From positions 161,200,001 through 161,264,000 of the forward strand of contig OZ024742.1 in NCBI GenBank assembly GCA_964016885.1: 64,000 nt of DNA, in the 5' to 3' direction. The notes beneath the pieces are model-generated. The model did not search any database. It saw nothing but the letters and a program-made list of their open reading frames with translations, and was not told where the DNA came from. The stretch is from Eledone cirrhosa. Its lineage: Eukaryota. The position numbers were made by a program, and so were the translations under genes. Numbering within the stretch: position 1 is the stretch's first letter; every line of letters begins with the position of its first letter. Below, piece by piece: positions 36,491 to 57,245 of the stretch.

Positions 36491-37052
36491 GACATCTCAT
36501 TCTCTCTCTCTCCCTCTCTCTCTCTCTATCTCTCTCTCTCTATCTCTCTCTATCTATCTATCTTCATTCATGATTCAATGTGGCTATTCCATTATCACAT
36601 TGACGGAGACTATCCAAATTACCGGGTTTATATCATTATAAATGACATTATATCACTAATAGTTCGTTTATGTTGTTGATAAGAAGATTTATTCTTCGTA
36701 ACTTTCGTAGCTGGGTGTTGAAAATAAGTCACCCCTAGAAGTCATGAAAACACAAAATACGTGTCCACCACTCCTTCACTATTAGCTACCAATGTTTCTG
36801 TAGGTCGGTTCTAATTCACTTAGTTGATAAGTTAATAGAATGTTCAAGAGCATTCTTATCTTTAAAAATTAAAATATCCTTTTTAATACCAACTCGTCTG
36901 AGACCACCCGCACTAAAGTGTCCACATCTCTATCAAAACCTCATCATAGCATACATATACACGTACATACATTTAAAGACGTACGTACATACATACATAC
37001 ATACAAACATACATACATACATACATACATATAGACATACGTACATACATAC

Positions 37053-40000
37053 ATGGTGGTGGCTGCCAACTCGTTTTTGAGTACGGCCACTACTTTATAT
37101 CCATGTAGGAGAACCCCTACCGATGCGGTAAACAAGTATGATTTTTAGTCCAGCCAGCGACTTGAAAACTCTGGTACAAACACTACACCTGTGACAATTA
37201 TTGACACATATTGCTGGGCCCATGGTACCATGTGACGACAAGTGCAGAGAGATCTCCAGGTATAAAGCAATGCCTGTGCTGTGAAGCTTTTATAGTGAGC
37301 AAAGGCACTGCACAAAGCCAGTCCCACTCTCTTAACCAAGATGATATTTACCAAAAAGAAGAACAAGTCAACATCATTGGATACCATCAGGGTTGCAGGT
37401 GTTATATCAGAGTTTTCCTTCTCGTAGAATTCTGCCTTGACAAAGGCTAAGGGGTCATCTCTCCCGGAGATTTTGGATGGCCATTGACTCTTAAGAGCTC
37501 CTTTGCCCTTTGACAAGTTTTGGTTTTAGTCCTGCAGGATGTCCAAAGTCACCCTCCTCACCAGGAAACCTTGGTGGGGTTGCCAGTTTAGTCGCCAACG
37601 ACCCGACCATGGGTCAGGTTGTACTGGAATACATGTTACCAGTAGCACCAATTGGTGACCTGACATACATACATACATACATACATACATACATACATAC
37701 ATACATACATACATACATACATACATATACATACAATATATGAATACATATATACACACTTACATACAGACGTATGTACGTAAATACATACATACAATAC
37801 ATATATGTATACATACATATAAAGACAGACAACGCGATCAGTCGCATATTTTGGCGTGGGAGACTATTTATTAAATTCTTGTGTGCGCTACAAGATCACA
37901 ATCAACTGCATACAAGAGGTCTGTTATGATTGATGTGAATACTTTTGTCTTTGCAGCAAAGCGCCTGATGTTAAATATGCTGCCTGAGGTTCGATATCGG
38001 ATGTAAACACCATGCTCGCAATTCCTGAATGCAATACAGAAAACCATTGCAAAGTATATGGCAAACAGGGTCGGTGCTGGAATATGCCCGTGTTTCACTC
38101 TATTTTTTACTGAGATAGGCTCCGACATGTTACCTGCGACATTAAGCCAAACCTTCACGCCGTCATGGAAAGACCTAACTAAAGAAAGGAACTTTCCATA
38201 ATGCATCTCTGTTAACAGTATCGAAAGCTTTTCTCAGATCGACAAAAACCTGATACAGATCCAAACCTTGTTCCATGCACTTCTCCTGGAGCTGTCTAGC
38301 TGAGAAGATCATACATACATACATACATACATACATACATACATACATACATACATACATACATACATACATACATACATACATACATACATGGTGGCTA
38401 GCAACTCGTTTTCGAGTACGGCCGCTACTTTATGTCCATGTAGGAGAACCCCTACCGATGCGCTGAACGAGTGACTTTTTAGTTCAGCCAGCGACTTGAA
38501 AACTCTGGCACAAACACTACACTTGTGACAATTATTGACACATAGTGCTGGGCCCATGGTACCATGTGCCGACAAATGCAGAGAGATCTCCAGATATAAA
38601 GCAATGCCTGTGCCGTGAAGCTTTTATAGTGAGCAAAGGCACTGCACAAAGCCAGTCCCACTCTCTTAACCAAGATGATATTTAACAAAAAGAAGAACAA
38701 GTCAACATCATTGGATACCATCAGAGTTTCAGGTGTTATATCAGAGTTTTCCTTCTCCTAGAATTCTGCCTTGACAAAGGCTAAGGGGTCATCTCTCCCG
38801 GTGATTTTGGATGGCCATTGACTCTTAAGAGCTCTTTTGCCCTTTGACAGGTTTTGTTTTTAGTCCTGCAGGATGTCCAAATTCACCCTCCTCACCAAGA
38901 AACCTTGGTGGTGTTGCCAGTTTCGTCGCCAACGACCCGACCATGTGACAGGTTGTACTAGGATACATACATACATACATACATACATACATACATACAT
39001 ACATACATACATACATACATACATGGTGGCTGCCAACTCGTTTTCGAGTACGGCCACTACTTTATATCCATGTAGGAGAACCCCTGCCGATGCGCTGAAC
39101 GAGTGACTTTTTAGTTCAGCCAGCGACTTGAAAACTCTGGCACAAACACTACACTTGTGACAATTATTGACACATATTGCTGGGCCCATGGTACCATGTG
39201 ACGACAAGTGCAGAGAGATCTCCAGGTATAAAGCAATGCCTGTGCCGTGAAGCTTTTATAGTGAGCAAAGGCACTGCACAAAGCCAGTCCCACTCTCTTA
39301 ACCAAGATGATATTTACCAAAAAGAAGAACAAGTCAACATCATTGGATACCATCAGGGTTGCAGGTGTTATATCAGAGTTTTCCTTCTCCTAGAATTCTG
39401 CCTTGACAAAGGCTAAGGGGTCATCTCTCCCGGTGATTTTGGATGGCCATTGACTCTTAAGAGCTCCTTTGCCCTTTGACAGGTTTTGTTTTTAGTCCTT
39501 CAGGATGTCCAAATTCATACTCCTCACCAAGAAACCTTGGTGGTGCTGCTAGTTTAGTCGCCAACGACCCGACCATGTGACAGGTTGTACTGGGATACAT
39601 ATTACTAGTAGCACCAACTGGTGACCTGACATATACATACATACATGGTGGCTGCCAACTCGTTTCCGAGTACGGCCACTATTTTATATGCATGTAGGAG
39701 AACTCCTACCTATGCGCTGAACGAGTGTGACTTTTTAGTCCAGCCAGCGACTTGAAAACTCCGGTACAAACACTACACTTGTGACAATTATTGACACATA
39801 GTGCTGGGCCCTTGGTACCATGTGACGACAAGTGCAGAGAGATCTCCAGACATAAAGCAATGCCTGTGCCGTGAAGCTTTTATAGTGAACAAAGGCACTG
39901 CACAAAGCCAGTCCCACTCTCTTAACCAAGATGTTATTTACCAAAAAGAAGAACAAGTCAACATCATTGGATACCATCAGAGTTTCAGGTGTTATATCAG

Positions 40001-55932: not shown

Positions 55933-56043
55933 GTATGTATGTATGTAGGTAGGTAGGTAGGTAGGTAGGTAGGTAGGTAGGTAGGTAGGTAGGTAGGTAG
56001 GTAGGTAGGTAGGTAGGTAGGTAGGTAGGTAGGTAGGTAGGTA

Positions 56044-57245
56044 TGGAAATACTCAGTTTGGTGCTCCAACACGCAGTTAGCTCACCAGGTGTCTCTTACT
56101 CCTAGTCCTTGTTAGGACATCATTCTAGAAGGAAAAGTCTGGTGTAAAACCTGCGACTTTTGGATATCTGCCCCGTATTGTCAGAAAGTCGGATTAGTTC
56201 AATGTAAAGCCATTCTTCACTGCTCAGGCATCACTTGATCTAAACATCTTTCATGCGTGTTGCATGAGGATGGCTGGCTTAAGCCGAAAGGCTCTTTTAT
56301 CGTGCCTCACATATGTGAGAGGGGAATCAAATGATGGCAATTCTTGAAATCGAGATGCAGTCATTATGTATGCATGTATGTATGCATTTATGTATATATA
56401 GATGTATGTATATATGTATGTAGTTACCGATGATGTTGATCTTTTCTTCTTTTCGGGTTATAGCTACTGTCGCTCAGATAGTGGGATTGGCTCAGTGCAC
56501 AGTCTTTCCTCACTTTAAAAAATATCTTTACGCACAGGCATTGCACGATAGAATTAATTAATAATTATTAATAATTGTTTCTACTTTTGGCACAAGGCCA
56601 GCAATTAGCCAGTACATTACTGGTACTTTATTTTATCGACCCCGTAAGGATGAAAGGCAAAGTTAACCAAAGTTAAGTATACCATTATTAATAATTATTA
56701 ATAATGGTATATCGTGCAATGGCCATACTCGATAACGAGGGGGCAGCCACCATGTATTCAGTTATGTATGTATGCAGTTATGTATGTAACCCAGTACAAC
56801 CTGTCTCATGGCCGGGTCGTCGGCGACTAAACCGACTACCCCACCAAGTTTGCTTGGTGAGGAAGTCGGTATTTCGACACCCTGCTCGATAAAATACAAG
56901 ACCCGGCAAAGGGCGGAAGAATTCAGTAGAGTCAACAGCCATCAAATAGTAGTAGTATTTTTTTTTACCTGGGAGTGAAAGACTCCCAGTTGTTGTCACA
57001 ACACTATTCTACGAGAGGGAAACTGAAAAAAAGCCTGCGGCTTCAGAAGCATCCGATGATGTTGACCAGTTCTCCTTTTCGGGTAGTGTTTTCGATGCTC
57101 AGAGAGTGAGATTGGTCAAGTGCTAGGCTTTTACCCCTCAAAAAAAACCTTCAAAGTACATGCATTGCTTGTTCGATAATCTGACATGCGATTGTAATAC
57201 TCTTAGCAGTGTTTGCAGCCATCATGTATGTATGTATGTATACAT
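56044..57245 (+). mobile_element. Cluster of three older, diverged bipartite RTE-derived elements separated by (TGTA)n
   Basis: At about 56044-56366, 56423-56752 (interrupted by a SINE) and 56787-57223. Each ends gcag(c/t)ca..atgta. Blocks shared with the array unit include cccagtacaacctgtctcatgg, gatgttga and cacaggcattgc. Confidence 0.75.
56552..56668 (-). mobile_element. SINE 3' half inserted in a bipartite RTE-derived element
   Basis: Matches the SINE family. The repeat attaataattattaataat occurs on both sides. Confidence 0.8.

Follow-up and report, generated by a model that had tools for sequence, protein, structure and literature searches.

Dong elements, namely the Dong of Bombyx mori, DongAg, DongBg and an ostracod Dong, are reported as (TAA)n-specific members of the R4 clade (PMC3812793, PMC7998251). 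The TAA target is stated to hold for 'most' insects, molluscs and cnidarians (PMC7998251), a wording that leaves room for known exceptions. [quoted passage not shown] Of the families with a restriction-like endonuclease (RLE) in other clades, Togen is specific to (TG)n and some HERO families are likewise microsatellite-specific (PMC4640811). The ACAY microsatellite is the target of WaldoAg1, WaldoAg2 and WaldoFs1, which are of the apurinic/apyrimidinic endonuclease (APE) type (PMC3812793) and belong to the R1 clade according to the title of a paper cited there. Dong-R4 and RTE long interspersed nuclear elements (LINEs) are abundant and recently active in octopus (PMC13282606, PMC8967140); an insertion target for them is stated neither in the main text of the former, which is without the word 'target', nor in the accessible text of the latter. 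A bipartite layout has been described for non-autonomous RTE LINEs (PMC5786205), and in one model of RTE insertion the 3' repeat of the RNA steers the choice of site (PMC6007223). Here we analysed a stretch of 64,000 nucleotides of the curled octopus Eledone cirrhosa (OZ024742.1, positions 161,200,001 to 161,264,000; contig C3 in our numbering), hereafter the window, in which two R4/Dong-type families, A and B, and RTE-type elements share a (CATA)n microsatellite.

Families A and B are young R4/Dong-type LINEs with a median divergence of 2.2% and 1.4%, respectively. The four R4 copies considered first (A1, A2, B1 and B2) encode a reverse transcriptase (RT) with the motif FVDD, together with a CCHC knuckle and an RLE motif. 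Each is bordered by a CATA-type tract on its 5' side, and all four share the 3' junction ...AA|CATAC, where the bar separates element and tract:

42727..46840, + strand: R4/Dong family A copy A1, full length, open reading frame (ORF) broken by frameshifts and stops
51829..52369, - strand: R4/Dong family B copy B1, 5'-truncated (RLE and 3' untranslated region, UTR), 97% identical to the natural full-length B copy in locus L131
52370..52451, no strand: (TGTA)n tract common to the B1 5' junction and the B2 3' junction (TRF and sequence)
52452..53542, - strand: R4/Dong family B copy B2, 5'-truncated, with an internal deletion of ~550 bp
53558..55932, - strand: R4/Dong family A copy A2, 5'-truncated at 2.4 kb; 3'-side tract at 53543-53557
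55933..56043, no strand: (TGTA)4 followed by a (GTAG)n tract at the A2 5' junction (TRF and sequence)

The 5' tract of A1 occupies 42714-42726 and its 3' junction reads GAAGAA|CATAC. A preliminary description of the window had placed these four copies between TACA-type tracts and assigned them one common 3' phase, and both observations were reproduced; its inventory had missed a remnant of family A (37826-37877) and a TAA-ended YMDD-type Dong copy (24146-26359), which are listed below. The segment 42727-42783 was considered as an RTE 3' stub and rejected, being the 5' end of family A in 13 loci. The 5' tract of A2 (55948-56043) shifts from (CATA)4 to (CCTA)24, a unit that is one base off both CATA and CTTA.

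The 3' ends of both families were counted by exact sequence patterns across the 3.0 Gb genome, resulting in 2,301 ends for family A and 3,031 for family B. The A ends continued as AACATAC in 1,886 cases, and a pattern with a shorter anchor found a single A end in the opposite-strand configuration. Flanks were analysed in the first copies listed on contig C1, 53 of family A and 36 of family B. Five second members of duplicate pairs and one copy with its junction outside the locus were removed, leaving 83. The 5' tract was defined as at least 3 CATA units within 40 nt upstream of the 5' junction and was present in 40/49 A and 32/34 B copies, that is in 72 of the 83. It was found in 12/12 full-length copies and in 60/71 copies truncated at many different points, while the same definition was satisfied at 1,873 of 159,360 background positions (1.2%) scored in 80 arbitrary 10-kb stretches (800 kb). 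The first 100 listed of 659 A 5' ends and the first 100 listed of 353 B 5' ends, listings which span contigs C1 and C2 and extend the full-length result, were also inspected by eye; a CATA or ACAT unit lay upstream in 96 and 100 cases, respectively, and no TATG run was seen. Because tracts precede truncated and full-length copies alike at a rate far above background, (CATA)n is almost certainly a true insertion target of A and B and not a tail. The 800 kb of background held 1,557 AT, 312 AC, 77 ACAT, 52 AGAT and 1 AAGT tracts, and the choice of ACAT by the R4 copies is therefore specific, as (AT)n is 20-fold commoner. With the target repeat on both sides, a fixed phase and a fixed orientation, A and B bear the mark of a sequence-specific non-LTR (non-long terminal repeat) element, and the TACA-specific R4 lineage of the preliminary description is upheld.

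That description had also considered that most copies might lack TACA on the 5' side, in which case the repeat would be a self-made tail and the 5' tracts would be tails of earlier copies or products of later recombination. This explanation can point to another R4 3' end upstream across the tract in 15/82 copies and to five duplicate pairs among the 89 copies. The chance that it is right is close to negligible, since the 5' tracts occur at dozens of truncation points, many of them bounded by unique DNA (the class 'other', 29/82) or by RTE 5' ends, and since every full-length copy has one.

Many full-length A copies repeat their first bases at the 5' junction (CAGT runs or extra A, C or T), as from slippage or template jumping, and one full-length A copy follows a CATA-type tract of at least 1.3 kb (L068, 1-1356). 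Use of (CTTA)n by family A was also considered; the 7 AACTTAC ends found here are CATA tracts with a single base changed, and this genome has too few CTTA tracts to judge by.

The same tracts border RTE-type elements, including a unit of 604 bp termed S1:

36945..37054, no strand: (CATA)n tract, left edge of cluster 1 (TRF and sequence)
37055..37662, - strand: S1 unit U1, full-length 604-bp element, a bipartite non-autonomous RTE derivative (sequence comparison)
37826..37877, + strand: 5'-end remnant of an R4 family A copy, immediately following a CATA tract (98% to the A 5' end)
37880..38313, - strand: RT fragment of the autonomous RTE LINE, joined to the A remnant and abutting a tract with its 5' end (89% to the natural RTE copy in locus L197)
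38393..42713, - strand: seven S1 units, full-length and 5'-truncated, each between CATA/AT tracts (38393-38963, 39025-39628, 39647-40219, 40305-40910, 40995-41567, 41649-42254 and 42361-42713)
46860..47189, - strand: S1 unit U9, 5'-truncated, with CATA tracts on both sides
56044..56366, + strand: older short element followed by (ATGT)n, likely RTE-derived by motif resemblance seen by eye, with no BLAST match to S1 at E 1e-5
56420..56751, + strand: autonomous RTE pieces, a 5' UTR part (56420-56573) and a 3'-end stub (56710-56751), 91% and 97.5% to L197
56790..57224, + strand: bipartite RTE derivative related to S1 (68%), with (ATGT)n behind it at 57225-57248

The A 5' end and antisense RTE RT fragment at 37826-38313, lying between two CATA tracts, likely reflect a deletion across an A-tract-RTE block. 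Twelve RTE-type 3' ends in the window, those of nine S1 units, of 56044-56366, of the stub 56710-56751 and of 56790-57224, continue on their own strand into ATGT/AT repeats, and in three of the S1 units (AT)n comes before the ATGT run. S1 positions 190-396 match the 5' UTR of L197 (69%, E 1e-20), an intact autonomous RTE copy encoding APE, RT and C2H2, and the last 30 nt (573-602) match its 3' end (87%, E 2e-5). By these alignments S1 is a bipartite non-autonomous RTE derivative without an ORF. Its exact autonomous parent was not found among the RTE copies sampled, and an Rfam scan of 36900-57400, the only search made for a tRNA-like head, returned no tRNA match. Positions 1-190 of S1 (e.g. 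window 39439-39628, - strand) had no match in the sampled autonomous RTE or in Rfam, and hairpins can be seen there by eye. The autonomous RTE family (L191-L210) has many open frames near 1,200 amino acids, a long 5' UTR and microsatellites inside both UTRs.

Exact S1 3' ends numbered 22,792 genome-wide, and RTE polarity was close to absolute, with 9,369 ends following CATACATACAT vs 6 following TATGTATGTAT. In 30 S1 copies picked regardless of R4, an AT/AC run of at least 12 nt was present on the tail side in 29/30 and on the 5' side in 26/30, with median lengths of 54 and 58 nt. The junction type was ATAT in 17, ACAT in 13 and GTAT in 0. As S1 has AT/AC tracts on both sides, RTE elements also land in tracts. 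The S1 units of the window differ by 1.7-5.8%, 20 genome copies differ by a median of 3.8% (190 pairs) and the median divergence of S1 is 1.7-1.8%. A single tandem duplication as the origin of the S1 array was mostly rejected, because pairwise distances overlap those of genome copies; most units are separate insertions or old duplications. One local two-unit duplication is likely, as U5 and U7 differ by only 1.7% and the same interrupted tract recurs beside two S1 blocks (40974-40994 and 42338-42360).

The neighbours of the R4 copies were then compared with those of 63 background tracts. An RTE 5' end or truncation was found upstream in 38/82 copies, separated by a tract in 35 of them, and downstream an RTE 3' end was found in 33/83 (31 by BLAST and 2 by eye), vs 6/63 background tracts touching RTE on each side. 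This corresponds to an odds ratio (OR) of 6.3 on the tail side (p=3e-5) and 8.2 on the non-tail side, so that R4-flanking tracts touch RTE 4-5 times more often than background tracts. Another R4 copy lay upstream in 15/82 and downstream in 19/83 (background 5/63 and 3/63), and no wrong-orientation neighbour, RTE or R4, was found among the sampled copies. Discordant cases, with either an RTE 5'-end or an RTE 3'-end neighbour, split 23 vs 18 (p=0.53). The R4 copy was younger than its RTE partner in 11/18 tail-side pairs and 11/23 other-side pairs.

These results bear on the proposal of the preliminary description that (ATGT)n tails made by RTE serve as landing pads for R4. There is ample documentation of microsatellite tails in RTE (PMC6007223), the excess of RTE 3' ends on the tail side is in line with it, and within family B the R4 copy was younger in 5/6 tail-side pairs. 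The enrichment is however equally strong on the non-tail side, no overall age order exists, S1 tracts are equal in length on both sides, and 17/30 S1 junctions are (AT)n rather than ATGT. Relatives in another host, described below, furthermore show the same R4 habit and head-to-tail clustering with no RTE in between. The landing pad proposal is accordingly quite improbable. Given the symmetric enrichment and the lack of a consistent age order, R4 and RTE very probably co-target the same tracts and form clusters there; the data agree with two systems that use the same tracts over the same period, and RTE may have started or extended some of the tail-side tracts. What survives of that description are the roughly twelve RTE-derived elements ending in (ATGT)n, the opposite polarity of R4 and RTE in both clusters and the growth of clusters on themselves. 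Its expectation that R4-flanking tracts are RTE tails more often than background tracts held as a count and lost its force through the equal excess on the other side.

The protein of family B was analysed from a natural copy in L131 that has an unbroken ORF of 1,174 amino acids (P0002). A Pfam scan matched RVT_1 and zf-RVT only; it gave no APE (Exo_endo_phos) match in P0002, while the RTE ORF in the same scan has one. The motifs C-x2-C-x8-H-x4-C and RPD..D..VVEISC (PD-(D/E) restriction-like endonuclease) were identified by reading the sequence, and the best sequence and fold matches of P0002 are R2 structures. Residues 27-79 are predicted to form three helices with a predicted local distance difference test (pLDDT) score above 90. 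For the N-terminal model, Myb, SANT, telobox and trihelix domains made up most of the top VIA matches (best Z 5.9, root-mean-square deviation 2.5, 64 aligned), and the N-terminus has no zinc finger. As read and modelled, A and B have the R4/Dong layout of a single ORF with RT, a C-terminal CCHC and RLE, no APE and a putative Myb/SANT-like N-terminus. The two families share 47% amino acid identity over 787 residues and are not sisters. Among named relatives, the element proteins are closest to one from Argonauta hians (55% over 1,097 amino acids), and B is about 32-35% identical to insect R4/Dong-like proteins. No HDV-like ribozyme was hit at the 5' end with our own descriptor, for which there was no positive control, and Rfam returned no ribozyme family.

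Relatives in other hosts were found at 25 loci in a metagenome scan, the hosts of which could include other molluscs or cephalopods. Contigs of three sequencing runs had 3'-heavy cover only and provided no usable flanks from other organisms. Three near-full-length elements in one record (G+C content 42-43%) have (CATA)n on both sides and the 3' junctions GAA|CATAC, GGA|CATAC and GAT|ATACATAC. In another record series (G+C content 30-32%), six loci have (CTTA)n at the 5' end (L231, L232, L237) or the 3' end (L235, L238, L244), with entry at |CTTAC, that is at the same |CWTA phase as the CATA elements. L231 lies head to tail directly behind an L244-family 3' end across a CTTA tract, with no RTE between. 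In the same series, L237 has a mixed CTTA/CATA 5' tract and L236 reads AA|CATACATA at its likely 3' end, with two CATA units. (TAA)n lies directly upstream of L245 and L246, which are one element, and of L251 (three loci, two elements); these are members of, or similar to, the sister clade described below. The remaining loci are fragments or without a clear end.

RT trees were calculated on subsets of 44 and 30 rows, the latter with a careful search and a midpoint root; L244 was too short for placement. In the 30-row tree all placed CATA and CTTA elements fall with A and B into one F/Y-V/I-DD clade, hereafter the FVDD clade, which splits at 100/100 from a mostly YMDD group. The latter consists of insect and crustacean proteins, L245 and the following copy of the window:

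24146..26359, - strand: Dong copy of the YMDD type, 5'-truncated and continuing into (TAA)n at its 3' end; an internal control from the sister clade

Both target types, (TAA)n and (CATA)n, are thus present in one window. Outside the FVDD clade, relatives from Pediculus, Sitophilus and Bombyx come nearest among those with a name; these are the same species as R4/Dong examples in PMC7998251, the comparison being one of species and not of matched accessions. CTTA occurs in three sublineages of the FVDD clade, and A groups with the CTTA-flanked L231, L232 and L235 (95/93) rather than with B. Within the clade, as far as these sequences go, repeat type tracks the host and not the lineage. The CWTA clade has an RxNRxY motif directly before the first Myb-like helix, the TAA group is without it, and the motif may have a role in specificity. 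Two YMDD-group relatives, P0081 and P0100, have a precomputed PF02338 domain besides RT.

Several observations weigh against the reading of A and B as protein-targeted (CATA)n elements of an FVDD branch. Genome-wide, 415/2,301 A ends are not exactly AACATAC; in the sample such ends are single-base variants of the tract. Eleven of the 83 copies are without 3 CATA units in the 40 nt upstream, some of them joining directly into RTE or unique DNA and one following pure (TA)n. Tract imperfections are mirrored on both sides in 3-5 copies and not in most, and the nick position and target-site duplication are unreadable inside the repeat. All 83 copies lie within the first 53 Mb of contig C1, the 5'-end patterns for A and B exclude G at one flank position, a slight bias in favour of tracts, and 13 of the 63 background tracts used for the neighbours are units of two local satellites, so that the 'other' class is inflated. 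As to the protein, a Z of 5.9 is middling, so that the Myb-like fold label alone is weak, and Foldseek found no match to the N-terminal model at E 0.001. Among the relatives, the tract was seen at a single end in five of the six CTTA loci, and L235 opens with (ATA)17, which is probably a coding poly-Asn linker but could be a TAA flank. The trees contain no labelled Dong, R4 or Rex6 sequence.

Overall, the explanation that A and B are FVDD-branch RLE retrotransposons sitting in (CATA)n, likely by means of their own protein, accounts best for the data and is probably correct. The R4 protein would recognise the CWTA repeat, nick the TATG strand and prime reverse transcription there, by analogy with target-primed reverse transcription in RLE elements. 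RTE and S1 would insert independently into (AT)n or (ACAT)n so that their own strand continues AT(GT), presumably priming on the ACAT or AT strand ending in AT with the aid of RNA 3'-end pairing. Two enzymes priming on opposite strands would result in the strict opposite polarity. Most tracts would be pre-existing targets and not RTE tails. Each insertion would split one tract into two usable ones, which slippage likely regrows, and mixed clusters would grow because of the two usable tracts left behind. Since the phase is the same in relatives from other hosts, whether they use (CATA)n or (CTTA)n, the CWTA specificity is likely old and degenerate at one position, with the repeat content of the host deciding between CATA and CTTA.

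What determines the choice of site is less certain. The Myb-like domain together with the RLE protein is somewhat favoured as its main determinant. A tentative alternative is that the site is set mainly by RNA, a read-through (CAUA)n or (CUUA)n 3' extension pairing with the nicked target, so that the repeat could switch with no change of protein. The repeat does follow the host, with CTTA in three sublineages of one low-G+C series and CATA in A, B and three loci of another record, and A is nearer to the CTTA-flanked L231 and L235 than to B. The 3' end carries 2-3 CATA units even where a copy borders (TA)n or unique DNA, and R2 targets are reportedly redirectable via RNA homology arms (PMC13586686). 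A degenerate protein specificity combined with host repeat content would however explain the same pattern, as (CTTA)n and (ACAT)n stand at 1 vs 77 tracts in the background sample. The mixed CTTA/CATA tract of L237 and the AA|CATACATA junction of L236, a member of the CTTA series, also speak against the RNA model, as does the N-terminal RxNRxY motif shared by the CWTA clade and missing in the TAA clade. Because (CTTA)n is nearly absent here (1 tract in 800 kb), this genome cannot decide between protein and RNA for CATA and CTTA. A broader version, in which an old and so far undescribed R4/Dong branch targets CWTA microsatellites across distant animals and switches between CATA and CTTA with the host, the lineage staying the same, because the read-through RNA tail sets the site, is unlikely. 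If true, it would represent an RLE integrase retargeted by RNA in nature, whose DNA-binding module is minimal and Myb-only, in a niche shared with an opposite-strand RTE.

Away from the CATA tracts, three related APE-type L1/Tx1-like LINE copies that are 79-85% alike, one of them nearly full length, lie on the + strand at 21162-24115, 26360-28281 and ~28500-34350. Each ends near (ATT)n, and with the TAA-ended Dong copy added, the group makes up a second cluster, centred on TAA/ATT and with opposite polarities. A SINE-like (short interspersed nuclear element-like) repeat of ~190 bp occurs at window positions 17227, 19386, 20914, 34336, 49700, 56559, 58909 and 63814; over 75 bp it is similar (76%) to the far 5' region of the autonomous RTE copy in L197.

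Targeting of microsatellites by R4 elements (Dong, TAA) and the ACAT target (Waldo) were already known separately, and the CATA case extends a known theme. What is new is the CWTA target in the FVDD clade beyond one genome, which is strongly supported. The preliminary description knew of no described TACA-targeting RLE. No CATA- or CTTA-specific RLE element was found in a full-text literature search either, the scope of which did not extend to Repbase, Dfam, Kojima and Fujiwara 2004 or Fell et al. 2025; the repeat itself, as ACAY, is already recorded as the target of APE-type Waldo (PMC3812793). In our judgement the chance that Repbase, Dfam, Kojima and Fujiwara 2004 or Fell et al. 2025 (a 4,464-genome screen) already records the target is appreciable, if below even. 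A and B may be among the annotated octopus Dong-R4 families. The target specificity of RLE elements has mostly been studied in R2 and ribosomal DNA, and TAA, CATA and CTTA offer a natural matched series in one group. As this series comes with a single small N-terminal domain and intact ORFs, the question of protein or RNA is directly testable. The results explain the landing sites of thousands of young octopod Dong-R4 and RTE copies, where two unrelated endonuclease classes share one microsatellite on opposite strands and build clusters.

Compared with known systems, S1 joins a part of an RTE 5' UTR to an RTE 3' end as described bipartite RTEs do; unlike them, it lies inside AT/ACAT microsatellites on both sides and its first 190 nt are without a match in the sampled RTE. 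Togen and HERO are, like A and B, RLE elements in microsatellites, but of other clades and in other repeats. A and B share with Dong the RLE-type single ORF, the Myb/SANT-like N-terminus without a zinc finger and insertion into a microsatellite. Unlike Dong, the clade of A and B targets a tetranucleotide, (CATA)n or (CTTA)n, falls in the FVDD clade (100/100) apart from YMDD/TAA and has the RxNRxY motif; Dong proper is defined by insertion into (TAA)n, whereas A and B sit in (CATA)n. Waldo and A and B target the same repeat, (ACAT)n, Waldo with an APE endonuclease and A and B without an APE domain, and the two represent convergence on one repeat.

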